Of a DNA stretch of 64,000 nt, positions 8,513-40,700 are shown piece by piece. Where the stretch lies: NCBI GenBank assembly GCA_041666185.1, contig JBAYHL010000003.1, positions 935-64,934 on the forward strand, in the 5' to 3' direction. The position numbers and the translations under genes were made by a program. The notes under the pieces are model-generated. The model saw only the letters and a list, made by a program, of their open reading frames with translations. It ran no database searches and was not told where the DNA came from. This DNA is from Patescibacteria group bacterium. Its GTDB lineage: Bacteria > Patescibacteriota > UBA1384 > UBA12157 > JAENIV01. Every line of letters starts with the position of its first letter. The first letter of the stretch is position 1.

Positions 8513-8520
8513 GTATCAAA

Positions 8521-14842: not shown

Positions 14843-15445
14843 ATGAATTGGCTTTTTACTTTATTATTTTGGGTACCATTAGTTTTTTCTTGTGTGGTTG
14901 TTCTTTGGCTTTTCTATTTGACGTTGGTAGGTAAAATTTCTTCTAAAGCTGCTCGTCGAGCATTAATTGCTGTAATCGTGATCTATTTTTTACAGATTGC
15001 CGTCAATATAACTTATTTTTATTTTCGTTTAAAAGGTGATGAGTTTGGAAAATATCTTTTACCACCAAATAGTAATTATTTATATCAAGCCGCTTGGGCG
15101 ATGAGTTCACCTAGCGTTTGGGCTTTAGCGATTGGTATTGGTTTGGTTTTGATTTTGTTGCTCTTGAGAAAAATTTTTCATTCGGAGATTCTTGATCGTT
15201 CAGATTTTTATATTTTGTTATTAACAATTTTTCTTGTTGGGCCATCGAGCGTTTTAGTCCTGGTTTTAGTAAGTTTTCTTCTAATGATTTGTTTCTTAAT
15301 CGGTTTTAGTTTTAAGCAAAAAAAGGTTGATTACAGGGCGAAACTGATTTTATCGCCTTTCTTATTAATCGTTGCTTTTATAATTTTAATTTTAAACAAT
15401 TTTGAATTTTATTTTAAATTTTTAGAAATGCTTCGTTTGACCTAA
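14843..15445 (+). CDS. Polytopic membrane protein, function unknown
   Basis: Several hydrophobic helices. No recognisable motif. Confidence 0.5.
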   Translation: MNWLFTLLFWVPLVFSCVVVLWLFYLTLVGKISSKAARRALIAVIVIYFLQIAVNITYFYFRLKGDEFGKYLLPPNSNYLYQAAWAMSSPSVWALAIGIGLVLILLLLRKIFHSEILDRSDFYILLLTIFLVGPSSVLVLVLVSFLLMICFLIGFSFKQKKVDYRAKLILSPFLLIVAFIILILNNFEFYFKFLEMLRLT

Positions 15446-17371: not shown

Positions 17372-17586
17372 GAAGAGATAGCAGCAATCAATGATAGGTC
17401 CTCGGGTCGCTACGCTCGCATTCAGCCACCCTATCCAACCTACTCGTCGCTTCCGATTTTGCCTCATCGCCAAGCTTCGGCAAATCGGAGCGTTCCTCGA
17501 CCGGCTTCGCTCGGTAGCTTCCCTCGGTTCTAAATTTTGTTTAAATAGATACATGGTTTGTTTAAAAATTAGGAATTTGTCATTGT

Positions 17587-18009
17587 ATGCTCGATCCATT
17601 AAAGATTGCTCTTAATTATTTAAAATTTCGTCCGCGAAGTATTTTTGAGGTAACGGAAAAACTCAAAGCGAAGAAAATTTCCGATAAAGAAATAAAAAAG
17701 ACGATCGATGTTTTGGAAAAGAATAAATTGTTGGACGATAAAAAATTTGCTAAAATGTGGGTAGCGGATCGTAATCTTTTGAAACCAGAGGGATCTTATC
17801 TTTTAAAGTTGGAATTAAAAAAGCTAGGAATTTCAGAAGATATTATCGAGGCTGTTTTAATTGGTCAAAACGAAGAAAAGCTAGCCAAGACTGCCCTTGA
17901 TAGTAAAAGTCGGTTAAACGATGCAGACTTTCACAAAAAAGCTAATTTCTTACAACGCCGTGGTTTTAAAATAGAAACAATATATAAGATTTTAAGAAAA
18001 TCACAATAA
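17587..18009 (+). CDS. recX: RecX-like regulatory protein
   Basis: 140-aa helical-repeat protein sitting after recA in the canonical RecX position. Confidence 0.6.
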   Translation: MLDPLKIALNYLKFRPRSIFEVTEKLKAKKISDKEIKKTIDVLEKNKLLDDKKFAKMWVADRNLLKPEGSYLLKLELKKLGISEDIIEAVLIGQNEEKLAKTALDSKSRLNDADFHKKANFLQRRGFKIETIYKILRKSQ

Positions 18010-18042
18010 TGGCCCGTATTAAAAATTTATCAAGGAGGGATT

Positions 18043-20376
18043 TTGTCAAATATTCTTTGGTTTCGAGACGTTTCAAAGGAAGACATTGCTGTTGCCGGCG
18101 GCAAAGGAGCTAATTTAGGTGAACTAACACGAGCAGGATTACCAGTACCACCTGGTTTTATTATAACTTCAACGGCTTATTTTGATTTCTTGAAAAATAC
18201 AGGTTTAAACAAGAAGATAAAAAAAATTATAAGTGGTCTGGATGTTGATGATAGCAAAAGATTAAACGCTATTGCTTTAGAACTCCAAAAAGAAATTTTA
18301 TCAAAACCCCTACCGAGTAGTTTGGCTAAGGAAATAATTGCTGCTTATCAAAAACTTTACACAACGTCGTCTTCGGCGATTTTTGTGGCCGTTCGTTCTT
18401 CCGCTACCGCAGAAGATTTACCAACAGCTTCTTTTGCCGGTCAACAAAAAACCTTTTTAAATGTTTCTGGTTCCGATGGAGTGATTAAAGCTGTTCGTCA
18501 AGCATGGGCGTCTCTGTTTGAACCGCGGGCAATTTATTATCGTAAAATAAATAACTTCGATGATTTAAAAGTTGGTATTGCTGTGCCGGTCCAAAAAATG
18601 ATACAGTCCGAAAAATCGGGCATTATGTTTACGATCGAGCCAGTGAGCTCGGACATGGAAAAAACTGTTATCGAAGGCGGCTGGGGGTTGGGAGAAGCCA
18701 TTGTTAGTGGTAGTGTCACCCCGGATCGTTATGTAGTTAGAAAAAAAGATTTAGAAATTTTGGAACGAAATATTGAACCACAAGCTTGGAAAATTATTAA
18801 GGTTGGTAAAGAAAACAAACATATTACTTGTACTAAAAAAGAACGAGAAGAGCAAAAATTAACTGATGAGGAAATTAAGAAATTAGCTGAATTTGGTGTA
18901 AAAATTGAGGAACATTACGATGCTCCTCAAGATACCGAATGGGCAATTGAGGGTGGTAATATTTATTTTGTTCAATCAAGACCAGTGACGACGATAAAAA
19001 AAACAACAACTGACAATCAACAACCGACAACTAATGAAGCTCGGCAAGAGGGAGAGTCGTCAGCTGGCGATGGTAAGTTGGAAGTTATTCTCAAAGGTAT
19101 TGCCGCTTCTTTGGGAATTGCTTCTGGTCCAGTTAAAATTATTCACTCACCATCAGAGATTGATAAAGTTTTAGAAGGCGAAGTTTTGGTAACGGAAAAA
19201 ACTAGTCCAGATTTTGTGCCGGCCATGAAGAAAGCGGCGGCAATTATTACTGAAACTGGAGGACAAACTTCTCATGCGGCAATTGTTTCACGTGAGTTAG
19301 GTATTCCTTGTGTTGTTGGTACAGGAACGGCGACCCATGTGTTGAAAACTGGTCAAGTTGTTTCTGTTGATGGCGCCAAAGGTTTTGTTTATAAAGGTAA
19401 AATAACACGTACAGAGGCACCGGCGGCTCATGATGATCATGGTGGTTTTGCTGAGGAAGTGCCAATTACGGCGACCAAAGTTTATGTTAATTTGGGTGAG
19501 CCTTCGGTGGCGGAAAAAGTTGCTCAACTACCAGCCGATGGTGTTGGTTTAATGCGAGCAGAATTTATGATTGCCGAAATTGGTGAACATCCCCGCGCTT
19601 TAGTGAAAGCTGGTAAAAGCGAAGAATATGTCAAAAAAATTGTTGATGGATTAACGGATGTATGCAAAGCTTTTTCTCCTCGACCGGTAGTTTACAGGGC
19701 AACTGATTTTAAAACTAATGAATATAGAAATTTAAAAGGTGGCGAAGCTTTTGAGCCTCAAGAAAATAATCCGATGATTGGTTATCGAGGAGCTTATCGT
19801 TATCTTAAAGAACCGGATTTATTCAAACTAGAACTAGAAGCTATTAAGAGTGTAAGGGGAATGTATGAAAATTTATGGTTGATGATTCCTTTTGTTAGAA
19901 CTATTGCCGAATTTAGAAAAGTAAAAGAATTAATTGATGAGTCAGGTTTACGTCGTGGACCAGACTTTAAGCTTTGGATGATGGTTGAGATTCCTTCAAA
20001 TGTTATTTTGATTAATGAATTTTGCCAGGAAGGTATTGATGGAGTTTCGATCGGTTCAAATGATTTAACACAATTAACTTTAGGAATAGATCGTGATAAC
20101 GAAGTTTTGGCGGAGGAATTTGATGAAAGAGATGAGTCTGTCAGGATTAGCATTGCCCATGTAATTAAAACTTGTCGTAGACACCATATCAGTGTCTCTA
20201 TTTGTGGTCAGGCGGCAACAACTTATCCGGAAATTGCTGAGTTAATGGTCAAAGAAGGAGCAACTTCAGTTTCAGTTTCACCTGATTCGGTGGTGGCAAC
20301 GCGAAAATTAATTGCTTCAGTAGAGAAAAAAATAATGCTTTCAAAAATTATTGACGATGAAGAACAGGTTGGTTAA
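18043..20376 (+). CDS. ppsA: Phosphoenolpyruvate synthase (pyruvate, water dikinase); TTG start
   Basis: GGKGANLGEL ATP-grasp motif, phospho-His motif GGQTSHAAIVSRELGIPCVVG, C-terminal PEP-utilising TIM domain. Confidence 0.85.
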   Translation: MSNILWFRDVSKEDIAVAGGKGANLGELTRAGLPVPPGFIITSTAYFDFLKNTGLNKKIKKIISGLDVDDSKRLNAIALELQKEILSKPLPSSLAKEIIAAYQKLYTTSSSAIFVAVRSSATAEDLPTASFAGQQKTFLNVSGSDGVIKAVRQAWASLFEPRAIYYRKINNFDDLKVGIAVPVQKMIQSEKSGIMFTIEPVSSDMEKTVIEGGWGLGEAIVSGSVTPDRYVVRKKDLEILERNIEPQAWKIIKVGKENKHITCTKKEREEQKLTDEEIKKLAEFGVKIEEHYDAPQDTEWAIEGGNIYFVQSRPVTTIKKTTTDNQQPTTNEARQEGESSAGDGKLEVILKGIAASLGIASGPVKIIHSPSEIDKVLEGEVLVTEKTSPDFVPAMKKAAAIITETGGQTSHAAIVSRELGIPCVVGTGTATHVLKTGQVVSVDGAKGFVYKGKITRTEAPAAHDDHGGFAEEVPITATKVYVNLGEPSVAEKVAQLPADGVGLMRAEFMIAEIGEHPRALVKAGKSEEYVKKIVDGLTDVCKAFSPRPVVYRATDFKTNEYRNLKGGEAFEPQENNPMIGYRGAYRYLKEPDLFKLELEAIKSVRGMYENLWLMIPFVRTIAEFRKVKELIDESGLRRGPDFKLWMMVEIPSNVILINEFCQEGIDGVSIGSNDLTQLTLGIDRDNEVLAEEFDERDESVRISIAHVIKTCRRHHISVSICGQAATTYPEIAELMVKEGATSVSVSPDSVVATRKLIASVEKKIMLSKIIDDEEQVG

Positions 20377-20385
20377 CGCAGGGTA

Positions 20386-20414
20386 TTGACAAGCGGTTTT
20401 CGTTTCGTCATAAT
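20386..20414 (+). promoter_or_regulatory. Sigma-70-like promoter TTGACA-17-CATAAT
   Basis: ttgaca at 20386-20391 and cataat at 20409-20414. A leader hairpin follows at about 20487-20530. Confidence 0.45.
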
Positions 20415-20540
20415 CAATAACATAGAATTATACATACCTCACAGGAAGGGGGTGGGTAGTTTGTTAAACAGTAGTTGAAGTACTCTTGTTCTTGGTAACG
20501 ACGACCATTGTAAGTAAACAAGAACAGGAGGAGTAGTAAA

Positions 20541-20822
20541 ATGTCTGTTATGTTTGTAACTGAAGGAAGGATAGAGAAGGTATTCGGTGTCGAGCTTGGG
20601 TTGTCCAACGGAGAAATGAATAAATTGGACAGTATGGCAGCCAAAGGCTCGGAAGGTGAATTGAAGGCATTGAATAGGCTGGTTCGTAAGGCTGAGAAAA
20701 TCAGTGCGTCCCCTCCTAACGGGAATGGCCATAATGGTCATGGCCATCGGAGTAAGAAACCGTCTAAGGCACCTGCCACTATGCGCGTGTCTCGCGTTGT
20801 TGTCGCGTGTATGTGCCGGTAA
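20541..20822 (+). CDS. Small His/Gly-rich protein (NGNGHNGHGH, C-terminal CMCR), 93 aa, GC-rich relative to the window
   Basis: RBS aggagg 8 nt upstream, its own promoter, and terminator GGCCGCC..GGCGGCC at about 20851-20880. Confidence 0.45.
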   Translation: MSVMFVTEGRIEKVFGVELGLSNGEMNKLDSMAAKGSEGELKALNRLVRKAEKISASPPNGNGHNGHGHRSKKPSKAPATMRVSRVVVACMCR

Positions 20823-20921
20823 CTTGCCTGCGATCTATGTTTTTATGTCGGCCGCCTTTTTTATCAGGCGGCCTTTTAAGTTACAGGAATAATTGGTATA
20901 ATAAGATTAAATTTTAAATTT

Positions 20922-21167
20922 ATGAATTATACATATCTTATTAAAAGTAAAATTAAAGAATGGGTTTATATTGGTTCAACGAAAGATCTTGTTAAGCGTT
21001 TTAGTGAACATAACAATGGTAAAGTCAGAAGTACAAAAGGGTTGATTCCATTTGAGCTGATTTATTACGAAGCATATCAAACTTATCATTTGGCAAGGAA
21101 ACGAGAGGTTGAGTTAAAAAAGCAAGGTCAACAGAAAGAAATATTGTTTAATAGATTAGGATTATGA
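20922..21167 (+). CDS. GIY-YIG nuclease family protein (small, YhbQ/UPF0213-like)
   Basis: WVYIGSTKDLVKRFSEHN...PFELIYYE shows the GIY-YIG motif pattern. Confidence 0.65.
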   Translation: MNYTYLIKSKIKEWVYIGSTKDLVKRFSEHNNGKVRSTKGLIPFELIYYEAYQTYHLARKREVELKKQGQQKEILFNRLGL

Positions 21168-21186: not shown

Positions 21187-21273
21187 GGAGAGGTCGCATA
21201 GAGGCCGAGTGCGTTCGCTTGGAAAGCGAATAGGTTCGTAAGAGCCTCGCGAGTTCGAATCTCGCCCTCTCCG
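21187..21273 (+). tRNA. tRNA-Ser (anticodon GGA), class II with a long variable arm
   Basis: Acceptor GGAGAGG/CCTCTCC. D-stem GCA/TGC. Anticodon stem TTCGC/GCGAA with loop TTGGAAA. T-arm GCGAG-TTCGAAT-CTCGC. CCA is not encoded. Confidence 0.75.
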
Positions 21274-21391
21274 CTTAGTAAAGAATAAGGGTTCTGACCC
21301 TGCGGGTCATCAACCGTAGGTTGAGAATCCCTGCCTCTCCGTTTATCCTGACTTGTCCCGAGTGTAATCGAAGGACCATTTCAGTAAACTT

Positions 21392-21658
21392 TTGGTGAGT
21401 CGTATGAATAAAAAATGGTTTTTTTATATTGTAAGGTGTAGTGATAATTCGCTGTATTCTGGAATAACGAATAACATTAACGAAAGGATATCCAAGCATA
21501 ATAAAGGAAAGGGTGCAAAATATACATCCTGTAGAAGGCCTGTTAAGCTTGTTTATAGTGAAGAGTGTGAGGATATTTCTAGTGCAAGAAAAAGGGAAGA
21601 GCAGGTAAAAAGGTGGAAAAAGGAAAAGAAAGAAGTGTTAATAAAGGATTTCTCTTGA
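21392..21658 (+). CDS. GIY-YIG nuclease family protein (second, diverged paralogue)
   Basis: FFYIVRCSDNSLYSGITNNINERISKHN...PVKLVYSE. Confidence 0.65.
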   Translation: MVSRMNKKWFFYIVRCSDNSLYSGITNNINERISKHNKGKGAKYTSCRRPVKLVYSEECEDISSARKREEQVKRWKKEKKEVLIKDFS

Positions 21659-25780: not shown

Positions 25781-26446
25781 TTATTTGTATTTTTGTAATA
25801 TAACTTCTTTAACGTCTGGTTTTAGGTAATCAAGAGGTTTAACAATTACTCCTGAAGAAAATGAACTCTTGGTTCCTTCTGTAAGATTCTCATCAGCAAT
25901 CGAGAAAGCTAATAAATTACTATCTGGTTGACTGCCAATTAAGCCAGTGCCAATTGGTTGGCCTTCTCTGACCAAGTCACCCTCTTTAGCTAAAGGCTTT
26001 TCAATTGCTAAATATCTTCCCCATAAACCATAGGAAAAATTAACAATTACTTCGTATTCTCCTAAGCCTTTTCGATTAACTTTTTCAACTTTACCAGAAG
26101 CTAAGCTGTTGATTTGGGTGCCTTCTTTAATATCCATCCAAACAAAATCGTAAACCTTGGGGTCGTCAGTTTGGACACCTAAACCCCCTAACCCTTTTTT
26201 CTGAGAAATCATTAATTTACTAATTGAGGTAGGCAGGTTAAGGCGAACAGTCGAGGCATTAGTTGGTAGGTCACTAACAATATCATCCTTTTTCTCAAGA
26301 TTTTTATCTTTTTCATCTAGCCAACTAGAATTTGACAAATTAACAGAAGGTAAATAATTAGTTCTATATAGTGCGTATAAACCACCGGCGATAACAATGA
26401 CAGCTAAAATTATAACTATTAAAATAATTTTTGCTCGATGACTCAT
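25781..26446 (-). CDS. Membrane-anchored LytM/M23-like protein with degenerate catalytic motifs
   Basis: N-terminal TM helix. The C-terminal beta-domain resembles peptidase M23 but lacks the HxxxD and HxH motifs. Confidence 0.5.
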   Translation of the reverse strand: MSHRAKIILIVIILAVIVIAGGLYALYRTNYLPSVNLSNSSWLDEKDKNLEKKDDIVSDLPTNASTVRLNLPTSISKLMISQKKGLGGLGVQTDDPKVYDFVWMDIKEGTQINSLASGKVEKVNRKGLGEYEVIVNFSYGLWGRYLAIEKPLAKEGDLVREGQPIGTGLIGSQPDSNLLAFSIADENLTEGTKSSFSSGVIVKPLDYLKPDVKEVILQKYK

Positions 26447-26550
26447 AAAATCCTCCTTTTAAGCTTTCTATATTTAGAATAAAACAAAATTTGAATAAAT
26501 ACAAATATGTGTTTACTTTGCTTGCTTAAAATGATAAAATAACTTTGTAT

Positions 26551-26625
26551 TCCCCGGTAGCTCAACGGTAGAGCAAATCGCTGTTAACGATTAGGTTGTC
26601 CGTTCGAATCGGACCCGGGGAGCCA
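26551..26625 (+). tRNA. tRNA-Asn (anticodon GTT), CCA encoded
   Basis: Acceptor TCCCCGG/CCGGGGA. D-arm GCTC-AACGGTA-GAGC. Anticodon loop CTGTTAA. T-arm GTCCG-TTCGAAT-CGGAC. Confidence 0.85.
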
Positions 26626-26714
26626 TCAAAAAATACGGTTTAAAGCCGTCTTTTTTGTGTTTAAGATCACAGAGTTTTTAAAAATATTAAACACCCAATT
26701 AAAAGAGCGCACCG

Positions 26715-26752
26715 TCCCTAATAACCAAGTTAAGGAAATTTTGTGGTATAAT
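26715..26752 (+). promoter_or_regulatory. Putative promoter with an extended -10 (TGgTATAAT) for the ytxG-to-giant-gene cluster
   Basis: tataat at 26747-26752 with TG at -14. The -35 is weak. Confidence 0.35.
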
Positions 26753-26775
26753 AATATTGAGTTGAAAGGATTTTT

Positions 26776-27072
26776 ATGAATTTAAATAGTTTTTTCCAGG
26801 TTTCTGTCAGTATCTTTTGTCTTGTGGGCACAATTTTTATGATCATTCTCTTTATTTGGGCGGTAATAATTCGTATCCAAATCAATAAATTAATCAGGAA
26901 GTTTGAAGAAATTGCTATTACAGCCAAAACTACCACAGGGGAATTCAAGGATTTTATCGAACGAACAATTACTTCATTGGAAAAATTTAAAGACAGCATT
27001 TTAACATTTGAATTTATCCGTAAAATGACTTCCGAAGTAATTACCTTAATAAAAAGTAATAAAAAGGAGTAA
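26776..27072 (+). CDS. DUF948 (YtxG-like) general-stress membrane protein
   Basis: N-terminal TM helix followed by a coiled coil. Paired with a YtxH-like gene as in Firmicutes. Confidence 0.5.
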   Translation: MNLNSFFQVSVSIFCLVGTIFMIILFIWAVIIRIQINKLIRKFEEIAITAKTTTGEFKDFIERTITSLEKFKDSILTFEFIRKMTSEVITLIKSNKKE

Positions 27073-27074
27073 CC

Positions 27075-27416
27075 ATGACAATGGACAAAACAACAAAAGG
27101 AATAATCATTGGAGCATCGGTTGGTGTGCTTGCAGGGGCAATCGCCGGCATTTTATTTGCACCGCAATCCGGCAAAGAAACACGGGAGGATATTAAAAAA
27201 TATCTTCATGAAATCAAAGAAAAAATTGCCGAAGAGCTATCACTGGTTGGAGATATCACCAAAGAAAAGTATGATGAGGTTGTTGGTAAAGTGGTAAAAA
27301 TTTACGAAACGGAAAAAAAGATTACCAGTGAAGATGCCACTGACATTAAAGACAAGCTAAAAAATAACTATCACGAAGTAGTAAAAATTGCCACCGAAAA
27401 AACAGACAAAAAGTAA
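27075..27416 (+). CDS. YtxH-like protein
   Basis: GASVGVLAGAIAGILFAPQSGKETREDI is the YtxH signature. Confidence 0.6.
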   Translation: MTMDKTTKGIIIGASVGVLAGAIAGILFAPQSGKETREDIKKYLHEIKEKIAEELSLVGDITKEKYDEVVGKVVKIYETEKKITSEDATDIKDKLKNNYHEVVKIATEKTDKK

Positions 27417-27452
27417 TTAAAAATGTTTAAATAAAAGAAGGAGGTGATTATT

Positions 27453-27926
27453 ATGTCAGAAATTATTAAAGAGACAACAACAACACAGGACAACACTAAC
27501 ACTGTTGCAACAAACCCTGCTAGTAGTGGGACGGCTGATAGCCAGTCAAGTCAAACAACAACGACTCAGCGAAACATTAATCCGGCGGTGGATAATCAGG
27601 GTAATAGGCAAGCAAGTGGTTCTCAGACGGCTACGTATTTCGTCTATTTCTTGTTCGGAGTGCTGGAAATACTATTAGCTTTCCGTTTTGTTTTGAAGCT
27701 TGCGGGAGCAAGTCATACAAGTGGTTTTGTCAATTTCATTTATGGTTTAAGTGGAGTTTTTGTGGCGCCTTTTAATGGAATATTTCATACGAGTTTAGCC
27801 CAAGGAGCCGAAACAACCTCAATTTTTGAGCCATCAGCATTAGTTGCGCTGATTGTTTACGCTTTGGTGGCTTGGGGGATTGTTAAACTTATACAAATAT
27901 CCTCTGGTAAACAGCAAGCCGAATAG
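27453..27926 (+). CDS. Membrane protein with a Ser/Thr/Gln-rich N-terminus (ATG at 27453 preferred over GTG at 27444)
   Basis: RBS aaggagg sits 9 nt upstream of the ATG. Two or three hydrophobic helices. Confidence 0.5.
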   Translation: MSEIIKETTTTQDNTNTVATNPASSGTADSQSSQTTTTQRNINPAVDNQGNRQASGSQTATYFVYFLFGVLEILLAFRFVLKLAGASHTSGFVNFIYGLSGVFVAPFNGIFHTSLAQGAETTSIFEPSALVALIVYALVAWGIVKLIQISSGKQQAE

Positions 27927-27940
27927 TTTAAAATAAAAAT

Positions 27941-28306
27941 ATGAAGAATATTTTAATTATTGAAGACGATGAATTATTGAGCAAAATTTTGTTTGATTCT
28001 TTTGCAAAGGCTGGTTTTAATACAACTAAAACAGTTGACGCTCTACAGGGTCAGCAAGCAGTTTTTTCTCTTAAGCCAGATGTGGTAATTTTAGATTTAA
28101 TGTTACCAGCGGGCAACGGGGTTGTGCTTTTAAGAAATTTACGTGCTTCGGCTCAGACTCAGGCAATTCCAATTATTGTTATGACTTCTTATCGCGATGA
28201 GGAAGTTCGTAAAGAAATGGAAGAAGTTGGTGTTCATGGTTATTTTCATAAACCATTTGAACCTGATGAAATGATTCAAAAAATTAATAGTATTCTAAAT
28301 TCATAA
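27941..28306 (+). CDS. Orphan response-regulator receiver domain protein
   Basis: ILIIEDDELL...DVVILDLMLPAGNG. Receiver only. Confidence 0.75.
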   Translation: MKNILIIEDDELLSKILFDSFAKAGFNTTKTVDALQGQQAVFSLKPDVVILDLMLPAGNGVVLLRNLRASAQTQAIPIIVMTSYRDEEVRKEMEEVGVHGYFHKPFEPDEMIQKINSILNS

Positions 28307-28666
28307 ATGGCTGATTTACAAAAATATGAGGAAACTTTTTTAAGGCAAACGAGAGATATTGCCGGTAAGCTTCAAGAAGTTTTGAAAATTTTAATTTCTG
28401 ATTTAAAAAACGAAGTAGCTTTAAGAGAAGGTGAGCGTTTAGCCCATGTTCTTAAGGGTAGTGCAGCTTTAATGAGGTGCGAAAATTTATCTAAATTAGC
28501 AGAAAAAATAGAAGAGTTTTTCCGTAAATCTCTAGAAAATACTTTAGAAATTAATCAAGATATTTTAAAAGAAATAGAGAATTTTTGTTTAGTGCTTTTA
28601 CGAACATCAAATTTTGAAGAGTTACAGAGTGTAAATTTCAAAATTAAAGACTTAAATACCATTTAA
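28307..28666 (+). CDS. Histidine phosphotransfer (HPt) domain protein
   Basis: AHVLKGSAALM matches the HPt HxxKG motif. Its start codon abuts the receiver gene's stop. Confidence 0.6.
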   Translation: MADLQKYEETFLRQTRDIAGKLQEVLKILISDLKNEVALREGERLAHVLKGSAALMRCENLSKLAEKIEEFFRKSLENTLEINQDILKEIENFCLVLLRTSNFEELQSVNFKIKDLNTI

Positions 28667-28676
28667 TATTTTTTCT

Positions 28677-28706
28677 TTGGATTTTTAAGTTTTTATAATA
28701 TATAAT
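28677..28706 (+). promoter_or_regulatory. Possible internal promoter TTGGAT-18-TATAAT ahead of the giant gene, followed by a leader hairpin AAGAGT/ACTCTT
   Basis: Seen directly in the sequence. Confidence 0.3.
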
Positions 28707-28774
28707 ATAGTAGGAATTTATTTTTCTAAAAAGAGTGGGAAACTCTTAGGTTTTGTGTAGCAGGAGGGGTTTTA

Positions 28775-31700
28775 ATGAACCAAGATGAGGTAAATGAAGC
28801 GAAGTCTTTAGATGCCGAAATTTCTAAAATTACAAAAAGCACTCGAGCGACCGTGCCGGCAATGACGCCGTTGCACGATATTTTGCGTCAAAAATATCCT
28901 TGGTATTACAGGTGGCACTTAAATCCTTTGAGTAAAGTTGTCCATACCTTAGTTTTGGGTTTGTGGATAGTTTTAGTTACGGGAACAGTTGTCTATAGTA
29001 ATGTTTATCAGGCGCCAACGGCTAAAGCCGCCGCTGATTTTACTTGTACTTGGGACGGAACAACTGGTAACTGGTCGGATACGGCTAAGTGGGGTGGTTG
29101 TAACAGTGAATATCCAGGGCAAACTGGGACTACTACTTACGATGTTTCGATCCCTTCAGGGTCAGTGACTTTGGATGTTGCTAGCGTCGATATCACCGCT
29201 GCCGGAACAACTGCAGGGGATATTTCTGTGGTTGGAACTTTAAATACAAATGGCAATGCTCTTACCTTACATTCAATGTTGGTTGATACTGGAGGAACTC
29301 TTGTAGCTGGGATTTCTACTTTTACTGTAAAAAGTAACTGGAATCATTCCGCGGGAACATTTATTCACAATACTTCTACCATTGCAATGACAGGAGCTAC
29401 AGGTTCGATCACCACAGGTACAGATTTAAAATATGTATATAACTTAACAACAACTACTGCTGGCCAAACCATTACTTTTGCCAATAGAACTGGCATCAAA
29501 GGAGTGCTAACAGTAGGTAATGCCTCTAGTGCGGTTACATTAAATGGTAATCAACTTATAGATTTGTACGACAATACTACACCGCTTTCTTTGACTGGAT
29601 TGTATAGCATAACATCAGTACAAATGACCTTCAGGGCAACATCTCCTTTGTCTATACCGGCTGCAACCTATGGAGTAGTTTATATATTTCTTAATGCCAC
29701 CAATACCATATCTTTAAGTGGAACAACTACTTTTAGTGCACTTGATATTTACTCTGCTGTGGACAGCGCTACGTCTACACTTGACACTGCCGGCTACACT
29801 GTAAATACTGTCAATCTTTCGATAGGATCAGCTAGTGGAACTAGTCATTGTGGCAAATTTATTGCCAATAACTCAACAGTAAATGTTAGTGGAAATGTTC
29901 TTATTCGCGCTTGTGGTGCAGGGACTGCTGAACTTGATGCTGGAAGTTCTACTATTAATGTTGGTGGAGATTACACTAATAATAGTACTTTCACTGCCAG
30001 TACCTCGACCATTAATTTTAATAAAACTTCCGGTACACAAACTCTTACTTCAGGTGGTACGGGAACAGGAAAATTATTTAATAATCTTACTCATTCTGGT
30101 GCGGGAATTTTGAGGTTAGCCACCAACGATATTGATGTGAATGGCACTTTCACTAATTCTGCCGGAACTTTTGATGCTGATACAAACGATAAAAGTATGA
30201 ATTTTGCTGGAGCTTGGAACAATACTGGGTCGGCGACATTTTCAAGAGGATCTGGGATGTTATATTTTGATGGAGCAACAACATTGACTGACTCTTCTTC
30301 CAACGCCGGCGATTTGGGGGTGGTATATATAACCCCTACATGTGTCTTAACTCTTGGGTCGAATGCCAAAATGACCTCTGTTACTAGTGTGGTTTTCTTA
30401 GGAAATCTCAACATGGGAAGTGGAAATACTTTGACGCTTACTGGCACTGGAACGCCCATGTCGTGGTTTGATACAACAACCTTTCAAAAAGGTACCAATT
30501 CGACTGTAACTTATACTGGCACAACCACGGCGACAAATGTTGCAACAGTTGCCTACAACAATCTAACCTTAACTCCAACAGCCGCTACTACTTACAGCTT
30601 AGCCGGTAATTTAACTGGTGCTAGTGCGATGAGTGGGAATTTGACTATTAATGCAAACGCTACTTTAAATACAACAACCTCAAATTACGGAATATCTACA
30701 ATAAATTTAACTATTAATGGAACTCTTTCCGCCAATGCTTCAGCAATTACTTTATCGGGTTCATGGAATAGCACTACTGGCCATTATAATAGGACAAGCG
30801 GCTCAAGCGGCTCTCATGTTACAATGACTGGCACAACAGGGACAGCCTCTATTAATTTTAATCCGGCTGATTTTTGGACCAGCACAACATCTTTTAACTA
30901 TCTAGAAATTAATGCGCCGGGTAACACAGTTACTTTGTCGAGTGACATTACTTTTTGGTATGATTGTCAATTAAATCTTCAAAGTGGCACAATAAATGGT
31001 AGCCGGTATATTACTTTTGCTTATCCTAATAACTCGTCTCCATATATTAATACTGCTGCCTCTTTTGGTGCTTCTTTGCCGACAGTCAGCTATATTATTG
31101 GCACTTCAAATCCTGCCTCTCCTACAATTGTATCGAGCGAAATTTATCCCAATTTAACTATCACTACTGGTAGCGCATGTCCAGCCGGCACCGAATGTTA
31201 TGCTAAATTATCCAGCGGTATTTCTGCTAACAACCTTATAGTCTCTGGTCAGACTGGTAAAAAAGCAACTTTAAATGCCGACATTCACGATATATCTGTA
31301 GGTAATGCTTTAATTATGGGAACAGCAGGTGGTTATTATGGCGAATTGGATATAAATAGCTCTTTAACTGTTAACAATTATGTCAGCATAGTTAATTCTG
31401 GTGTCGCCTTTTCAAACAAGCTCGTTGCTGGCACAGGCACATCTATCTCTGTCGCTAATGATTTCATGAACTATGACACCTTTGAGGCCGGCACTTCGAC
31501 AATCACCTTTAACGGATCAACAACAAATAGAGGCATTACGACTAATGGGGATGCTTTTTATAATTTAACCATTGACGGAGCTGGTGGTGGTTGGATAGCC
31601 CAAAGTGCAGTTAATGTAACCCATGACTTTAATATTACTAATGGTACATTTGATCTTAAGAGCGGCAGTAATTATGCCTTAAATGTTGGTAACGATTTTA

Positions 31701-34700
31701 TTGGTAACAATGGCACTTGGACATTTGAAATGAGGGCTTCAACCATTACAGTTTCCGGTAACTGGAATACTTCAGCTAAAGCATGGGATAGCACAAACAA
31801 CAATGCTCTTAAAACAGGGACTTCAACTGTTGTAATGAATGGAACAGGTACTAAAACAATTACAACTGGTGTCACAAATGCCTGGGAATCAAGATTTTAT
31901 AATTTAACTGTTGGCCAAAGTGGTAACACCACCAGCCTTGCACAAGCAGTTGGGACTGATGGGGTTCTGACAGTCGGGACAGGGACTTTTTCAATTGCGA
32001 CTGATAAAACCATTTATCTCAAAAAACCAACTGGCGATGTTTTATCACTTGATCCGGCTGCGGTTTTAGTAGGAGTAGGTACTGGCCATCTCAGTCTTCA
32101 CAGTAATGGTACGAGCGGTACTTTAAATCTGCCAGCACACACTTATGATATGTCAATATGGCTAAGTGGTGGTGGTTTTACTGTGGCTCAAACTGGTGAC
32201 GTAATTATAAATGGTAATTTAATGGTAAATGGAGATCAGCAAGCTAGCAGAGTTGCTAATTACAACACAGGCAATCATTCTTTAACCATTTCTGGCAATC
32301 TTCAAGTTGGTTACAATACTACTACTTACGATGCTAATAAGACTTTCACTGCTGGTAGTTCGACTGTTACGGTTGGTGGCAATATGACTCAATATGGTAT
32401 TCTAACCGCCGGTAGTTCTACCTTTGATTTTAATTCTGCAAGTAGCCGAACCTTAGACTCTGGTGGCACAGGTGCCAATCAAACATTTAATAATCTTACT
32501 CACTCAGGTAATAATACTTTGCAGCTTGTGACCAACTCTATTAATATTAATGGTAATCTTACTAATTCTGCCGGCGAATTTGATGCTAATGGGCTAAATG
32601 TTGATGTTGCTGGTAATTGGGATGTTGCCGGTGGAGGTTTTTATGCCGGGGCGACTCCTGGAACGCAAACAGTCACTTTGGATGGCGCAGGAGGATCCAC
32701 TCAAGCAATTTCTGGTTCAACAACTTTTAATAATTTAACGGCGACAACTGCAACTGCTAGAACTCTACAATTTGCTGCGGCATCGACTACGGTTGTAGAA
32801 GGTGTTTTGACAATGGACGGTGCGGCAGGACAACTGCTTTCCTTACGTTCGTCTTCTTCTGGTTCTTGGTGGTATTTTGGTACTCTTAATCCAGCCGAAA
32901 CCTCTTACCTAGATATTCAGGATTCAGACGCTTCTTTGGGTGCCACCAATACGGCTAACACTTCTAATGATTCTGGTAATAATCAAAATTGGGTTTTTGG
33001 TGGGGGAGTTACTTATATTTCCGGAACGGTCTATACTAATGAAAACAAATCCACCAACGTTGGTGCGGGAATAACGGTGGCTATTTCAGTTAATGGTGGA
33101 GCAAAGAATACAATAACAACGACTGCCGGCGGGGTATTTAGCTTTAATTCTGTGGGAGTAGCCGCTAACAACACTCTTACTATTTTTACTGATGATGTTA
33201 CCTATAAATCAAATCTTGTTACCCAAGTTTTAAATACGGTAGATGACATTACGGGCTTGGAAATGTACACCGGAGATATTTCGCTTCGTCATGAAACTGC
33301 GGGACCCTTAACTAACACATTACTTGCAACAGCTGATAATCTAGCTGACCCTAATATGTTTTTCTCGGTTGATGGTTCTAATAACGCAACTTTTTCCAAA
33401 AAACTCTGGGTAGAAAGTGGTTACAACTATACACCAGGAGGTAACGTTACGGTTAACGATAGTACGGAAATTAGAAGTCTTGCTACTTTAAACCTGGGTT
33501 CTTCTGGTTATATTTTAACCTTGGGTGGTACATCAGCTACACCATTAGTGGTTTCTGGGACGCTTTCAACTGGCAGTAGTTCAACTGTTAAATACACAGC
33601 TGTTAATGCTGGGAGCAATGTCAGTGTTGTCGCTACTCCTTACAACAATCTTCAATTTTCACCTGCCTCGGCTGAAAGCTATGATTTAGCTGGTAACCTT
33701 ACTGTTGCTAATGCCATGACGGGCAGTTTAACAGTTGATGCTAATGCAACGCTTAATACCTACGTTGGAACTACAAGTTACAACATTTCTTGTGTAAATG
33801 GAACTGTTAATGCTAGTGGAACTCTTTATGCTGGCGCAAATGGCAGCACTGGCACGTCAACTTTTACGGCTTCTGGTAACTGGGACACCTCCAATGGTAC
33901 ATTTACTTACGGGACTTCAACAGTTGTTCTTACGGGTACAGCAAATTTAGGTGCTGGATCGTCTGCTTCTCATTCACTGTACAATTTGACAATGACTACT
34001 CCCGGTCAAATTGTAACTTTGTCTAGCATTGCTACAAAAGTTTACGGTACTTTTACAGTTGGTAGTACCTCGGGTGCTAAAGTTACTCTACAGAGAGGTG
34101 GTGGGAATGCATGGTTTTATTTGTACAACAATACTACCCCGTTAGTTTTCAACGGAACTTACAATGGGAGCCCTGGGTATAATATTGATGATTTAAATAC
34201 AGTATATAATCCTACATTAGACACATCTTTTGTTGGTGGTCATTTTGGGAATTTATATTTTACTTGTAACAACAAGACTATCACACTTGCTAATGCTGTT
34301 ACCGCAACTGGTAATCTTTTTATTTATAGCTCCAATAGCACTTATCGCTCAACCGTTGATACGGCAAGTAATGCAGTTACTGCTGGGACTTTAAATCTTG
34401 GCCAGGCTAGCTATACGTCAAATTACGCTACTTTATTAGCCAATGCTTCAACTATTACGGCGGCGAATGTTGTTATAAGAACCGGAGCTTTGGCAAACAA
34501 TATTTTAAACGCTGGTTCGGCAACTATTAATGTTTCTACCAACTGGACAAATGCTGACACATTTACAGCCGGAACTTCAACAGTTAATTTCAATGGTACG
34601 ACAACCCAAACTATTACCGGTGCTAATACTTGGTATAATTTGACGATCGCCAATACCGCTGGTACACCAAGTGATACTTACGATGTTGACCCAACTGCTG

Positions 34701-37700
34701 CTCAAACTGTGACTAATACTTTTAATATTAACGATGGCCAATGGAGCGGTTTTAATGGCGACACCTATAACAATATTAATATTAATTATACTAACGGCAC
34801 TGTTAATGGCATTTTTAAACCAGACGCAGGTGCTAATATTAATATTTCTAGCAACTGGACACAAGCGCTTAATTCCGTTTTTACTTATGGTACGAGTACA
34901 ATTACTTTTACTGGTAGCGGCAAAACTATTGGTGGAACAGCAAGCTACAGTATTTTTTATAATATAACAATAAATCCAGGTGCGTCAGTTACCAATAATC
35001 TTCCTTATGTGTATAACTTTGGTCCTAATTTTACGGCTAATGGTACCTTTACAGTTGGGGATGGTAAATATGTAGGTCTTTATTATGTTGGTGGGTCAAC
35101 GGTTTCTATCGGTGATGGTGGTTTAATTCAAGGAATTGATGTTGCCGATTCCATTTTTAACGTAGAAGATCTTGCGCCAACGGTTAATTTAACTGGTACA
35201 GGAAATTTTGGTTCTAATCTTTATTTAAGGTTTATGTTTGTCGATAGTAATGGCACACTGCCTTCTCTCAATTATAAAGCAGGAAAAGTAGAAGCTTATG
35301 GTTTATATTTTACAAGTGGTACTTATACTATCACACCAACAGCCGGGACATTAGATATTGATGGTGATTTTTCTATCATGGGCGAAGAGTACGATCAAAT
35401 GACTTCTACTATCGACTTTAATAATTCCAACAATACGACGATTAATATTGGTGGAAGTTTTTCTAGGACAGATGCCTTTGGCGTTCCTGAAATTAAATAT
35501 ACCAAGGGTACGACTGATACAGTCACTTTTGATGCCGCTGCAGGTACAAAAACTTTTGATCCAGGCACAACATCCGTTTTCAATAATCTTACTCACTCTG
35601 GTGCGGGAACTTTACAACTTGCTAATACTGCCTTAAATATTGATGGCAACTTTTCTAACTCAGAATCTGCGGGAGAATTTGATGCCAATGGTTTAAATAT
35701 TAATGCCGCTGGCAATTGGGACGTTGCCGGTGGAGGTTTTTATGCCGGGGCGACTCCTGGAACGCAAACAGTCACTTTAGATGGTGCAGGAGGATCCACT
35801 CAAGCAATTTCTGGTTCAACAACTTTTAATAATTTAACAGCAACAGCTGCTACTGCCCGGACTTTACAGTTTGAAGGTGGTCAATTAAATATGGTTTCTG
35901 GTACTTTAACCATGAATGGCGCGGCAGGACAACTGCTTTCTTTGCGCTCATCTTCTCCTGGTACTACTTGGTATTTTGCCACTTCCGGCACGCCAACAAC
36001 TTCTTATCTAGATGTTAAGGACTCCGATGCTACTTTGGGAGCAACAATTAGCGCTAGCAATTCATTAAATTCTGGTAATAATTACAACTGGAGTTTTGGT
36101 GGCGGTGTAAATTATATGTCTGGTACGGTCTATACCAATGAAAACAAATCCACCAACGTTGGTGTTGGTGTTACGGTGGCAGTTTCAGTTAACGGTACGG
36201 CTAAACAGACAACGACAACCACGGCTGGCGGAGTATTTAGTTTTAACTCTGTTGGGGTTGCCGCTAACGAAACTTTAACCTTTTTCACTGACGATGTAAC
36301 TTACAAATCAAACCTTGTTACACAAGTTTTAAATACGGTAGATGACATCACGGGATTGGAAATGTACACCGGAGATATTTCACTTCGTCACGAAACCGCC
36401 GGGCCAATAACCAACACCTTGCTTGCAACAGCTGATAATCTGGCTGACCCTAATATGTTTTTCTCGGTTGATGGTTCTAATAACGCAACTTTCTCAAAGA
36501 AACTTTGGCTAGAATCAGGTTACACTTACACGCCAGGAGGAAATGCTACGGTTAATGACAATACTGAAGTTAGATCAACTGCTACCTTAAATCTAGGTTC
36601 GTCTGGTTACATCTTAACTTTAGGTGGTACATCAGCCACACCATTAGTGGTTTCTGGGACGCTTTCAACTGGCAGTAGTTCAACTGTTAAATACACAGCT
36701 GTCAATGCCGGCGGCAATGTTAATGTGACAACTGTACCTTACAACAACCTCCAATTCACACCGGCGTCAGCTGAAAGCTACGATTTAACCGGTAATCTTA
36801 CTGTTGCTAATGCTATGACAGGGAGTCTTACAATTGATACTAACGCAACCTTTAGCACAACAGCTTCTAACTACAATGTCGCTGGGATTAATGCGACGAT
36901 CGTGGGTACTTTAACGCCAAATGCTTCAACTATTACTCTTTCCGGTAACTGGGATTCGTCGACAGGGACTGTTAATATGACTGGGAATACTTCGACCGTT
37001 GAAATTACCGGTAATAGCTCAATTAATGGTAAAAGCTGGGTTAATACTTTTTATAATCTAAAAACAGCTTATACCGACAAAAATGTTAGCTGGACAAATA
37101 ATAGTGCCATAATTAATCAGCTTACGTTGATGGGGACCAATCCAAGTACCTCTCATATTACTGGAGTTGCTAGTCAATATGGTCCTAATTTGAATGTTAG
37201 CGGGTCTAATTTAGTTGTTTCTAACGGTGCCAATATGGTGAACTTGACAATTCTTTATACTGGTTCGGGAGCAACGACTATTACTCCCGGTACTTTTTAC
37301 TCTATTTTGGCGGTTGCTCCATCTTCATCAACTCAGACTTTAGGTGGCGATGTTACCTGTGATTATGTTAGAGTTTTTGGTTCTTCTGGGCAAACAGCCA
37401 CATTGGATTTGAATGGTTACACCTTAAATTCTGTTTCAAGCACTGGTTTTAACCAAATTGGTTGGGATGGTGACAACACGCGTTATGGCAAAATTATCAA
37501 TAGCTCTCAGACAACTGACGCGACAATTAATGCTAATGGCGGTGGTAGTGGTGGTATAAAAATTAGTACCTCCAATACAGGTGGTAAAAATATTCTTGAT
37601 GCCAGCGGCGTTGGTCCTGCTAATCATACGATTAATGTTAATATGGCTGGTAACTGGACGAATAACGATCAATTTATATACAGTAATTCAACAGTTAAAT

Positions 37701-40700
37701 TTACCGGTACGGGAGCGATCGACAATACTGCTAGTTGGGGTGATAACAATAAGCGTATGCACAGCCTAATCATTGAAGCCGGTGCTGGTACGGTGACTCT
37801 AACAAACGGAGCCTATTTAATGGGCACAGGAACTTTAACTTTAAATAGCGGCATTCTTACTGGTAATAAAAATATCTATGTAAATGCATTTAATGGGTCG
37901 TATGTTAATAACGGTATTAGTAATTTTGGCGCCTCAAAACCAGTTATTACCATGATGGTTAGTTCGACTAACCCAGCTTCGCCAGATATTATCTCTGGGG
38001 CTTCAGCAACCTATCCTTATCCTTATCTAGAAACCCGTGGCGGAATTAGCAGCGCGACTGTTTATGGCAAAATGGGTGGCAATATCACCAGCTCTAGTTT
38101 TACTATTGCCCCTTGGCAAACTAACGATACCTTAGAAGTTGACACCGACAATTATTCTATTACTGTTAACGGTTGGATGTTTGTTGGCGCTAACTGGGCA
38201 ACTTCCCATGCCTCAATTTTGAATGCTCGTCACTCAACAATCACTGTTACTGGTGAAGTTGGTATATATTCTCACGATACTAATCCTACTCCAAGCGAGC
38301 TTCGTTTTGATGACACTGGTGGTAGCCTTTCGGTGATGGGCAATTTTAACTTTGATACTGCAGGTGGCTCAGTAAGAGGCATTTTCACACCAGGTCACTC
38401 AACAGTTACCTTTAATGGAGCCAATACCCAAGCCATTATCGGTGCCAACACTTGGTATAACTTAACGATTGCCAATACTGCTGGTTCACCAAGCGACACT
38501 TACGACGTTGATCCAACGGCGGCTCAAACAGTTACTAACACTTTCAATATTAACGACGGTCAATATAGCGCTTTTAATGGTGACAGTTACAATGACATTA
38601 ATATTAATTATACCAGTAGTACTGTTAAGGGTATATTTAAACCAGATGCGGCAGCAAGTGTTACTGTTTCTGGCAACTGGTCTCTAGCAACTAGCGCTAC
38701 CTTTACTTATGGTACAAGTACAATCATCTTTACTGGTAGTGGTAAAACTATTGGGGGGACGTCGCTTAGTTGGTCTCTTTATAGTCTCGTAATTAATCCA
38801 GGCGCTTCTATTACAAGCAATACAGCTTATATATATGTTTATGGCACTACTTTTACAGTTAATGGTACATTTAGTGTAAATAATATAAGTGTTTATGCTC
38901 CTACTGTTACGGTCAACAGTACCCTGACTGTTGGTGATGCTAAGATGTTGTATTGGTCGAACTCTAACCAAACGCTTAACATTGGTGACGGTGGCTTGAT
39001 TCAAGGAGTCGATGTTGCAGATTCTGTGTTTAGAATAATTGGTGACGCAACACCAACTATCAATTTAACCGGAACGGGAAATTTTGGTTCCAGTCTTTAT
39101 TTACAGTTTATGATTTATTATGGTGATTTAGCGCTGCCTTCTTTAAATTATCAAGCTGGTAAGGTTGAAGTGTTTGGCTCTTTTGCATTTGAAAGTATTG
39201 TTCATAATATTGTACCAACAGCTGGAAATTTAGATATTGATTGGGACCTTAGTATCAAATGTGAATTGATATTTGGAACGGGCACTCCTACTATGAATCT
39301 TTATAACTCCAATAACACACCCATTAATATTGGTGGAAGTTTTACAAGGGCAGAGATTGGTGCTGTTGGTGCCATTGCTAAATACACTAAAGGCACAACT
39401 GACACGGTTACTTTTGATGCTGCTTCTGGGACAAAAACTTTTGATCCAGGGTCATTATCTACCTTCAATAATGTTACTCACTCTGGTGCAGGAACACTTC
39501 AGCTTGCTAATACTGCTCTAAATGCTGATGGTAACCTTACTAACTCTGCCGGAACTTTTGATGCTAACGGTTTAAATATTAATGTCGCTGGTAACTTTGA
39601 TATTTCTGGTGGGTCATTTTCTGCCGGAACTGTTCCTGGAACCCAAACAGTCACTTTAGATGGTGCGGGAGGATCTACTCAGGCAATCTCTGGCTCAACG
39701 ACCTTTAATAATTTGACGGCGTCAGCAACGGCGGCTAGAACTTTACAATTTGCGGCTTCGTCAACAACCGCTGTTTCTGGTACTCTAACAATGAATGGCG
39801 CGACTAGTCAACTGATAAGTTTACGCTCATCATCTTCTGGCACTGCTTGGAATCTTAACGCCACTAATGCGCCAACTCTTACCTATGTTGATGCCCAAGA
39901 TTCTAACGCTTCTGGTGGAGCGCTAATTACTGCTAATAACTCTAACGACTCTGGTAATAACACAAATTGGACTTTTGGCGGGGGAGTAACCTATATTTCC
40001 GGGACAGTCTATACAAATGAAAATAAATCCACCAATGTTGGTGCCGGTATCACTGTGGCGATCTCTGTTGATGGTGAGGCTAAACAAACAACCACGACGA
40101 CAACTGGTGGAGTCTTTGCCTTTAATTCTGTTGGTGTTGCCGCTAACAATACTTTAACTCTCTTTACAGATGATGTTACTTATAAAGGTAACTTAATTAC
40201 TCAAGTTTTAAATACCACCAACGACATTACTGGTTTAGAAATGTATACCGAAGATATTGTTATTCGTCATGAAACTGTAGGACCAATGACCAATACCTTA
40301 CTTGCAACAGCGGCTACCCTTGCCGATCCCAATATGTTTTTCTCGGTTAGTGGTGGCAACGCGACATTTACGAAAAAACTTTGGTTGGAAAGTGGCTTTA
40401 ATTACACATCGGGAGGGCAGGCATCAGTCACCGACTTAGAGACAAGAGGTACTTCGACTTTTGCTCCGCAAGCTAATAGTGTTTTTGCGTCTGGTAACTG
40501 GACAATCTCGGCGACTGGAATTTTGACAACTTCAGGAACAATTGATTTTACTAAATTATCTGGGACACAAACATTAAACTCTGGTGGTACTGATTCAAAT
40601 CATCAGCTTTATGGTCTTACTCACTCTGGTGCTGGTACTTTACAATTGACTTCCAATGCCATTGTTGAGAATAATACCTTTACTAACTCTGATGGCACTT

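Follow-up and report, generated by a model that had tools for sequence, protein, structure and literature searches.

A stand-alone receiver and a CheA-P1-type HPt protein: a putative phosphotransfer pair beside a giant gene in a patescibacterial genome

Which genes of a tightly packed cluster belong together functionally, and which are only neighbors? This question is raised by a stretch of 64,000 nucleotides from a Patescibacteria group bacterium (assembly GCA_041666185.1, contig JBAYHL010000003.1, positions 935 to 64,934), which was analyzed at its full length and is called the window throughout. Five small genes follow one another at 26776-28666. The last two encode a receiver protein (REC2) and a histidine phosphotransfer (HPt) protein, and an 18-kb gene for a giant surface protein begins shortly downstream. 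The first-pass annotation had treated all six genes as one operon, in which an envelope-stress module and a phosphorelay branch lead to regulated display of the giant protein. The analysis gave a narrower answer. REC2 and HPt probably form a translationally coupled, self-contained phosphotransfer module of a multi-step relay, the kinase of which is encoded elsewhere; the sequence comparisons favor this reading to a moderate degree. By the same comparisons the pair is an ordinary signalling module rather than an established controller of the giant gene, and its position beside YtxH-type and giant genes is species-specific.

The receiver and the HPt protein

The two genes that carry the argument are the following.

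27941-28306, + strand: REC2, stand-alone receiver of 121 amino acids (PF00072, E 7e-23, 81.4 bits, cut-off 30.2)
28307-28666, + strand: stand-alone HPt protein of CheA-P1 type, 119 amino acids (PF01627, E 1.3e-9, 38.6 bits, cut-off 24.6)

The PF00072 match of REC2 spans residues 4-116 and profile positions 1-111 of 111, and the chain ends 5 residues past the domain, i.e., no output domain is fused to it. The active-site set is complete and comprises E8/D9/D10, D52, T82, Y101 and K104-P105. Orthologues fall into 20 clusters with 55-93% identity, and most of them are 120-127 amino acids long (range 104-133). Across the 20 orthologues D9, D52, T82 and K104 are invariant, D10 is nearly so, and the switch position is occupied by Y or F. 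The family also has signature motifs, namely DAxQGQQA, LDLMLPAGNG and SxQTQxIP. Judged by its sequence, REC2 is an ordinary, CheY-like receiver-only (Rec-only) protein. The first-pass annotation had proposed a stand-alone receiver here, and this was confirmed by the domain match above threshold and by the presence of the phospho-acceptor D52. A profile search of genome contigs with the alignment of the REC2 orthologues found two species representatives only, and a profile scan of metagenome contigs gave, among the matches listed, generic receivers of at most 41% identity and no orthologues. The naming of the two proteins is already known, since public records call them 'response regulator' and 'Hpt domain-containing protein'.

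The HPt protein carries its phospho-acceptor H47 in the sequence AHVLKGS, which is an HxxKG context, and K50 and E69 are also present. In an alignment of 21 family members Y7, H47 and E69 are invariant. The HPt call of the first-pass annotation thus held, including on the point it had named as decisive against it, loss of the His in orthologues: H47 was found in 21 of 21 sequences. An exhaustive phmmer search retrieved about 17 small single-domain relatives, and the remaining matches were HPt repeats within very large multi-HPt proteins that resemble CheA/ChpA. A word-indexed homologue search, unlike the exhaustive one, retrieved only the protein itself.

Both the family profile and the predicted fold place the HPt protein far nearer to the P1 domain of CheA than to Ypd1 or HptB. 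The profile matched CheA P1 domains with E values between 5e-22 (T. maritima) and 1e-14 (8.5e-15 for Salmonella), compared with 8e-5 for Ypd1. The AF2 model (predicted local confidence, pLDDT, 90.9) contains helices at residues 4-31, 36-55, 59-76 and 84-99, with H47 in the helix 36-55. The top Foldseek matches of this model were HPt/P1 structures and point to a four-helix bundle. The best match was T. maritima CheA P1 (1tqg; root-mean-square deviation 1.3 Å over 94 columns, TM-score 0.74/0.84), while Ypd1 and HptB reached TM-scores of 0.39-0.55 and the HPt domain of ArcB 0.35. In CheA P1 four helices form the bundle and a fifth one varies, and the acceptor of the E. coli protein is His48 (PMC3180615). 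The family-invariant E69 aligns with a Glu of T. maritima CheA P1. Glu70 and Lys51 of CheA have a functional role in P1, and the Glu tunes the His. By sequence profile and predicted fold, the protein is of the CheA-P1 type.

The likeness to the CheA P1/CheY systems (T. maritima 1tqg/2ld6, Salmonella 1i5n, R. sphaeroides 3kyi) extends to several details. As in the HPt protein, a four-helix bundle is followed by a short C-terminal helix, the phospho-His is located on helix 2 in H-x-x-K-G and a conserved Glu on helix 3, and the partner is a single-domain receiver, as REC2 is here. The difference is that P1 is the N-terminal part of CheA, whereas here it is a free protein of 119 amino acids without P2-P5, CheW or receptor genes nearby. 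Genes for CheA P2-P5, CheW or MCP/receptor proteins were found neither in the 64-kb window nor in any fetched locus. The HPt protein is not a CheA, although one source labels it so, because its open reading frame (ORF) is complete and none of these genes is present in the window. It was also considered whether it is a mis-called CheA fragment, and this was rejected, as the ORF ends with a stop and has equal length in 17 independent relatives.

The kinship with P1 raises the possibility that a class II kinase lacking P1, encoded outside the window, phosphorylates the HPt protein in trans, from where the phosphoryl group would pass to REC2; such a system might control type IV pili in a Pil-Chp-like manner. 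CheA3/CheA4 of Rhodobacter sphaeroides are a precedent for a split CheA, and the CheA3-P1/CheY6 structure 3kyi is among the profile and fold matches of the HPt protein. The idea draws on CheA P1 being the nearest relative in sequence and fold, on the CheA-like spacing of H47/K50/E69, and on the HPt repeats of large CheA/ChpA-like proteins being the best matches outside the small family. In one relative (L102), moreover, pilin-like and PilB/PilC genes lie beside an orthologue of REC1, the second receiver of the window. We nevertheless regard a split CheA as improbable. No gene for CheA P3-P5, CheW or an MCP was seen in the window or the fetched loci, and, to our knowledge, chemotaxis-type kinases are not usual in Patescibacteria. 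The His-tuning Glu would serve transfer from Asp to His equally well, so that the likeness to P1 does not reveal the donor.

Taken together, REC2 and HPt appear from their sequences to be phospho-competent, as all residues for transfer between Asp52 and His47 are present. Based on established two-component biochemistry, a phosphoryl group would be exchanged between Asp52 of REC2 and His47 of HPt, and the pair would act in the middle and/or at the end of a His-Asp-His-Asp relay. Both proteins are free of fused kinase and output domains, so they are most naturally read as parts of a multi-step phosphorelay, and in this respect the suggestion of the first-pass annotation is supported.

The pair and its neighbors in relatives

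The REC2 orthologues were compared in nine independent genomic contexts, including the window (the loci of relatives are denoted by L and a number). In eight of the nine the HPt gene abuts the REC2 gene, the junctions ranging from -1 to +5 nt, as revealed by gene calls and a check with hidden Markov models (HMMs), and in the window the HPt ATG immediately follows the TAA stop of REC2 (gap 0). Judged from these junctions, the two genes are translationally coupled. The exception is L012, which has a REC2 orthologue (66% identity) and no HPt gene on its 9-kb contig. There, at 4242-6038, two small membrane proteins are encoded downstream of the REC2 orthologue, and a sortase gene on the opposite strand and a giant-like gene come next. 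A protein of 111 amino acids with four transmembrane helices in L012 is 77% identical to the product of the gene directly 3' of HPt in L098.

The genes around the pair vary. Upstream, a 211-amino-acid protein with one transmembrane helix, a DUF6580 protein, a 105-amino-acid protein with three transmembrane helices, a sortase, an alpha/beta hydrolase or divergent genes were found. Downstream, the neighbors were a convergent M23 peptidase gene (L004/5/6, L100), a convergent miaA gene, a DJ-1/PfpI gene, a GH130 gene or a gene for a small protein with four transmembrane helices. Among all neighbors, REC2 and HPt alone stay together in the relatives, and by this comparison of sequences they are a co-inherited, portable pair. 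The association of an HPt with a Rec-only protein reaches beyond the orthologous clade, because in L104 (833-1616) the gene for a distant small HPt protein (28% identity) precedes a Rec-only gene, with 7 nt between the two, an order opposite to that of REC2 and HPt. The L104 pair adjoins a divergent pyruvate phosphate dikinase gene.

In the window, the following features surround the pair.

26551-26625, + strand: tRNA-Asn (GTT), the upstream boundary of the cluster (ARAGORN; Rfam tRNA, 68.3 bits)
26635-26657, + strand: terminator-like hairpin with T-run 3' of tRNA-Asn, stem at 26635-26649 (scan; the stem is supported by RNA folding)
26744-26752, + strand: extended -10-like element TGGTATAAT, 23 nt 5' of the first ATG (read from the sequence)
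26776-27072, + strand: protein of 98 amino acids with one long N-terminal hydrophobic helix and two more helices (hydropathy)
27075-27416, + strand: YtxH-family protein of 113 amino acids (PF12732, E 2.4e-18)
27444/27453-27926, + strand: membrane protein with two transmembrane helices, 157 amino acids from ATG 27453 (160 amino acids from GTG 27444)
28677-28706, + strand: promoter-like TTGGAT-18 nt-TATAAT in the 108-bp spacer after HPt (read from the sequence)
28775-46831, + strand: surface protein of 6018 amino acids, rich in T, G, S and N, with an N-terminal transmembrane anchor (residues 55-73), fn3, CarboxypepD_reg and C-terminal transmembrane helices

The ORF calls and the measured gaps agree with the first-pass annotation in that the five small ORFs, the tRNA-Asn and the 18-kb gene all lie tightly spaced on the + strand. 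The gaps between successive genes of the cluster are 2, 36 (27 with the GTG start), 14, 0 and 108 bp, and the widest one precedes the giant gene. The five small genes are likely to be co-transcribed in this strain, because the receiver gene follows after 14 bp without a Shine-Dalgarno sequence and the gaps upstream are 2-36 bp; the three genes upstream (98 amino acids, YtxH, YGGT-like) thus probably share a transcript with the pair. The element TGGTATAAT could be a promoter for the small genes. It is a consensus match alone, and the promoter scan did not list it, since it has no -35 match. Rfam revealed only the tRNA over 26400-29000, and neither a leader nor a riboswitch.

The domain calls of the first-pass annotation held for three of the five small proteins, i.e., YtxH, Response_reg and Hpt, which all exceed the Pfam thresholds. 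The YtxH match reached 66.8 bits at a cut-off of 37.5, and the protein has an N-terminal glycine-zipper transmembrane helix at residues 8-26. The label DUF948/YtxG for the first ORF was not confirmed. No Pfam match to DUF948 (PF06103) was obtained even at E<=10, NCBIfam gave nothing, and the only Pfam matches were sub-threshold ones to DUF4446 and AI-2E. Its architecture is generic, and the AF2 single-sequence model (pLDDT 77) has helices at 3-50, 55-74 and 78-97. The third protein is a membrane protein as proposed, with two transmembrane helices and an N-terminus rich in T, Q, S and N; it is weakly YGGT-like, with a match to YGGT (PF02325, E 4.4e-4, profile positions 1-67 of 70) of 21 bits, below the cut-off of 27. 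The start at ATG 27453 has a strong GGAGG ribosome-binding site upstream, and gene calls on identical contigs give 157 amino acids.

Homologues of these three proteins were found beside the receiver-HPt pair in none of the fetched loci of relatives. By this comparison they are species-specific neighbors and no conserved functional partners of the pair. In Bacillus subtilis, ytxG-ytxH-ytxJ are general stress genes. The arrangement in the window resembles them in that the small gene preceding the YtxH-family gene encodes a protein that has an N-terminal transmembrane helix and a helical tail. It differs in that the first gene has no DUF948 match and no ytxJ-like gene is present, and a stress role of the genes in the window is putative.

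The question remained whether the giant gene belongs to the pair. For the six-gene operon speak the gaps of 0-108 bp and the HPt-giant spacer, in which neither a scan nor RNA folding revealed a terminator-like site; folding gave AU-rich stems alone (z -1.76), none of them a convincing terminator or attenuator. The giant gene may share a transcript with the small genes in this strain. In addition, genes for envelope proteins (sortase, M23 peptidase, small membrane proteins) are found repeatedly in the vicinity of the pair in relatives, and a giant-like homologue lies on the same strand downstream of the pair 0.8 kb away in L100, 1.5 kb in L012 and 3.2 kb in L004, which makes four of nine contexts together with the window.

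The close spacing on one strand is the norm in this genome. The window has a low GC content of about 35-41% and a strong bias toward the + strand, which carries 37 of the 42 genes; same-strand gaps are 110 bp or shorter in 22 of 33 cases, with a median of 64 bp. Against this background a tight, co-oriented cluster is expected, and the compact-genome norm explains both the co-orientation and the close spacing, so that the cluster is not beyond chance. The spacer also contains the promoter-like element with TATAAT at 28677-28706, to which the first-pass annotation had already pointed as the giant gene's own promoter. Its -35 part matches 3 of 6 bases, and it lies below the scan threshold, a consensus match in AT-rich DNA.

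Comparison with the relatives argues further against the operon. A convergent M23 gene sits between HPt and the giant-like gene in L100 and L004, which makes co-transcription impossible there (M23 separates the two in L004/5/6 as well), and the L004 interval additionally holds HEPN/nucleotidyltransferase genes of the toxin-antitoxin type. A giant-like gene directly downstream of the pair is absent in L007, L009 and L097. L099 has no giant gene at the locus, where GH130 and then rpoD follow (its RpoD is 87% identical to that of the window, compared with 88% for L004), and in L098 the gene after HPt encodes a small membrane protein, after which the contig ends. Direct adjacency of pair and giant gene was seen in this species only. 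Finally, REC2 and HPt both lack any output domain, DNA-binding or other, through which the giant gene could be controlled. The relatives keep the pair alone, the upstream trio accompanies it in none of them, and the 'regulated surface display' unit of YtxH-type genes, pair and giant gene was not upheld; we consider it unlikely. From the loci compared, the giant gene is a neighbor of the pair and no conserved partner. A preprint on giant genes makes no mention of two-component neighbors.

The shared surroundings have another explanation. DnaG/RpoD genes lie within 1-4 kb of the pair in the window, L004/5, L007 and L099. The M23 gene of the window (25781-26446, - strand) is 72-76% identical to the M23 genes after HPt in L004 (9981-10715) and L100 (1387-2061), and it is located on the opposite side of the cluster, beside rpoD. 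A local rearrangement is indicated by these positions, i.e., convergent after HPt in the relatives and on the other flank in the window. The recurring neighborhood is best explained, as far as gene order and identity tell, by residual DnaG-RpoD-M23 synteny and local rearrangement among close relatives.

Several observations concern the giant proteins and the surroundings more generally. In the giant protein and in a BNR-repeat protein of 1607 amino acids (1205-6028, + strand), the N-terminus carries the motif K(K)YxWYYxWHxxP ahead of a transmembrane anchor, and both have a C-terminal CarboxypepD_reg block with transmembrane helices. The same N-terminus was found on large genes in four loci (L004 from 13098, L100 from 2194, L012 from 6136, and L007 at 1-1199 on the - strand). 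The shared blocks look like a lineage-specific anchoring/export module for very large surface proteins. Elsewhere in the window, two ORFs for GIY-YIG proteins of 81 and 88 amino acids (20922-21167 and 21392-21658, + strand) flank a tRNA-Ser gene (21187-21274); such mini-genes also occur near the pair in L004/5/6 and beside the orthologue of the window's kinase in L103, and they are possibly mobile selfish elements. ARAGORN also detected tRNA-Ile (TAT) at 48616-48690 on the - strand and tandem tRNA-Met (CAT) genes at 52046-52120 and 52171-52245 on the + strand, and of the CAT tRNAs one possibly serves as initiator or as a tRNA-Ile of the lysidine type.

The kinase at 11686 and the wiring of a relay

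Where could the phosphoryl group come from? A six-frame HMM scan of the window detected exactly one HPt and two receivers, and the window contains one kinase. All components of a relay are encoded within the 64 kb, since its kinase is of the HisKA type and both receivers are Rec-only proteins. The kinase and the second receiver are encoded next to each other.

11686-13767, + strand: soluble GAF-GAF-PAS-HisKA-HATPase_c kinase with the H-box HELRAP at residue 478 (Pfam)
13810-14193, + strand: REC1, Rec-only protein of 127 amino acids, 42 bp after the kinase gene (PF00072, E 3e-22)

The kinase is non-hybrid, i.e., it has no receiver domain of its own, and REC1 is 29% identical to REC2. HisKA (class-I) kinases phosphorylate receivers and never HPt proteins directly, and, thus, a receiver must stand between the kinase at 11686 and the HPt protein. 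The circuit would then run from the kinase via REC1 and HPt to REC2, with four separate proteins. This is the most economical order, because the sole kinase of the window is soluble and non-hybrid and has its own REC1. Based on the domain content, this wiring is plausible, and the reversed order of REC1 and REC2 is equally allowed. A link of the pair to the kinase at 11686, which the first-pass annotation had also suggested, is possible. The output of REC2 would be a phosphorylation-dependent contact with another protein, as for CheY, DivK and CpdR; this fits the T82/Y101 switch pair and the conserved family-specific surfaces of a protein that has no output domain.

The following observations weigh against a relay of this kind, or against the pair being independent of its surroundings. 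The kinase family has at least 68 orthologue clusters (47-75% identity; the relatives are named Berkelbacteria), compared with 20 for REC2-HPt, and an HMM scan found no HPt within 10 kb of the kinase in L101, L102 and L103. The kinase thus works without the pair in many genomes. Kinase and REC1 remain adjacent in L101 and L103, and in L102 the REC1 orthologue (67% identity) lies 4 kb downstream of the kinase; as far as these loci tell, the kinase already has a conserved receiver and requires no other partner. The presence of kinase and pair within one genome is shown for the window alone, the source names of the kinase and REC2 orthologues pointed to no second genome with both, and other kinases, hybrid or CheA-like, may lie beyond it. 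Marks that distinguish intermediary from terminal receivers have been proposed, namely the FATGUY motif and an aromatic residue in beta5 (PMC9981736). They did not separate the two receivers here, as both have the aromatic residue, with V-M-T-S-Y in REC2 and L-L-T-N-I in REC1. In addition, the REC2 orthologue of L012 occurs without an HPt gene. Lastly, a giant-like gene 0.1-3.2 kb downstream in four of the nine contexts is above random placement, and a loose functional tie of the pair to the giant gene is possible.

The narrower distribution of the pair than of kinase and REC1 would also be expected of an accessory modulator. REC2 could compete with REC1 for the kinase at 11686 or another kinase, and HPt could store the phosphoryl group or transfer it back, so that the pair would be a phosphate sink or buffer that tunes the duration of the signal. 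The absence of an output domain from both proteins fits this idea, and phosphotransfer between Asp and His is reversible. The conserved surfaces of REC2 (DAxQGQQA, SxQTQxIP), together with T82/Y101, suggest a specific downstream partner instead, and we judge a mere sink to be quite unlikely. The reading as a phosphotransfer module of a multi-step relay is preferred.

The surroundings of the kinase were also inspected. REC1 is followed by a gene for a pilin-like protein (14219-14731, + strand) with the N-terminus GGFSFIQILIIL and by one for a protein with six transmembrane helices (14843-15445, + strand). The pilin-like protein is 52% identical to a protein with an N_methyl domain in L102. In that locus (16746-20965) pilin-like and six-helix genes also follow the REC1 orthologue, and genes for PilB (T2SSE) and PilC (T2SSF) come next. 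This gene order points to a connection of the kinase and REC1 with type IV pili. Upstream of the kinase, L102, which lies on a 929-kb contig, contains at 8357-9993 a cluster of single-domain signalling proteins, namely a sensor-less HisKA-HATPase_c kinase of 246 amino acids and two Rec-only proteins that are 46-47% identical to REC1. The window also encodes a stand-alone helix-turn-helix (HTH) protein of the GerE/LuxR type with 70 amino acids and no receiver domain (8905-9117, + strand; PF00196, E 3e-19), and L101 and L103 each have a homologue of 67 amino acids in the corresponding place, 5' of the genes for FtsK and the kinase. The GerE HTH protein could serve the Rec-only proteins as an output domain that has become detached. 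Literature searches retrieved no work that deals with HPt or Rec-only proteins of Patescibacteria.

Known relays and the meaning for Patescibacteria

The proposed relay can be compared with two known groups of systems. In the sporulation phosphorelay of Bacillus subtilis the phosphoryl group passes from KinA to Spo0F, then to Spo0B and finally to Spo0A. The likeness is that every step is on a separate polypeptide and that a non-hybrid class-I kinase is combined with a Rec-only intermediary. With E about 2e-21, Spo0F ranks with the best PDB sequence matches of REC2, and both have an MT(A/S)Y motif after beta4. In contrast, Spo0B is a dimer of the DHp-like type, where a monomeric HPt bundle is predicted here, and Spo0A has a DNA-binding output, whereas both receivers of the window are without an output domain. 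The second group comprises Ypd1, LuxU, ShpA and HptB, which, as the protein described here would, shuttle phosphoryl groups between receivers as small monomeric HPt proteins and are encoded beside a gene with a receiver. The order luxO-luxU in Vibrio, regulator first and then HPt, is the same as in the REC2-HPt pair. These systems differ in being fed by hybrid kinases, none of which was seen in the window.

A more far-reaching proposal is that the two-component signalling of this clade is fully unbundled, with a soluble GAF-GAF-PAS kinase, two Rec-only proteins, a free P1-type HPt protein and a free GerE HTH protein, and that a Rec-only end-point acts on type IV pili or giant surface proteins during attachment to a host cell. 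We regard this as speculative and rather improbable. If it is true, an unbundled relay of four or five proteins would exist in a Berkelbacteria-like clade, in which an HPt of the chemotaxis type works outside a chemotaxis kinase.

The Asp-His biochemistry implied for REC2 and HPt is textbook, and the comparative evidence does not support control of the giant gene by the pair. Patescibacteria have tiny genomes with few regulators. The conserved, portable pair is one of the very few signalling modules visible here. Together with the soluble kinase, REC1, the pilin-like gene and the giant surface proteins of the same 64 kb, it makes up a short list of candidates for phosphotransfer profiling.

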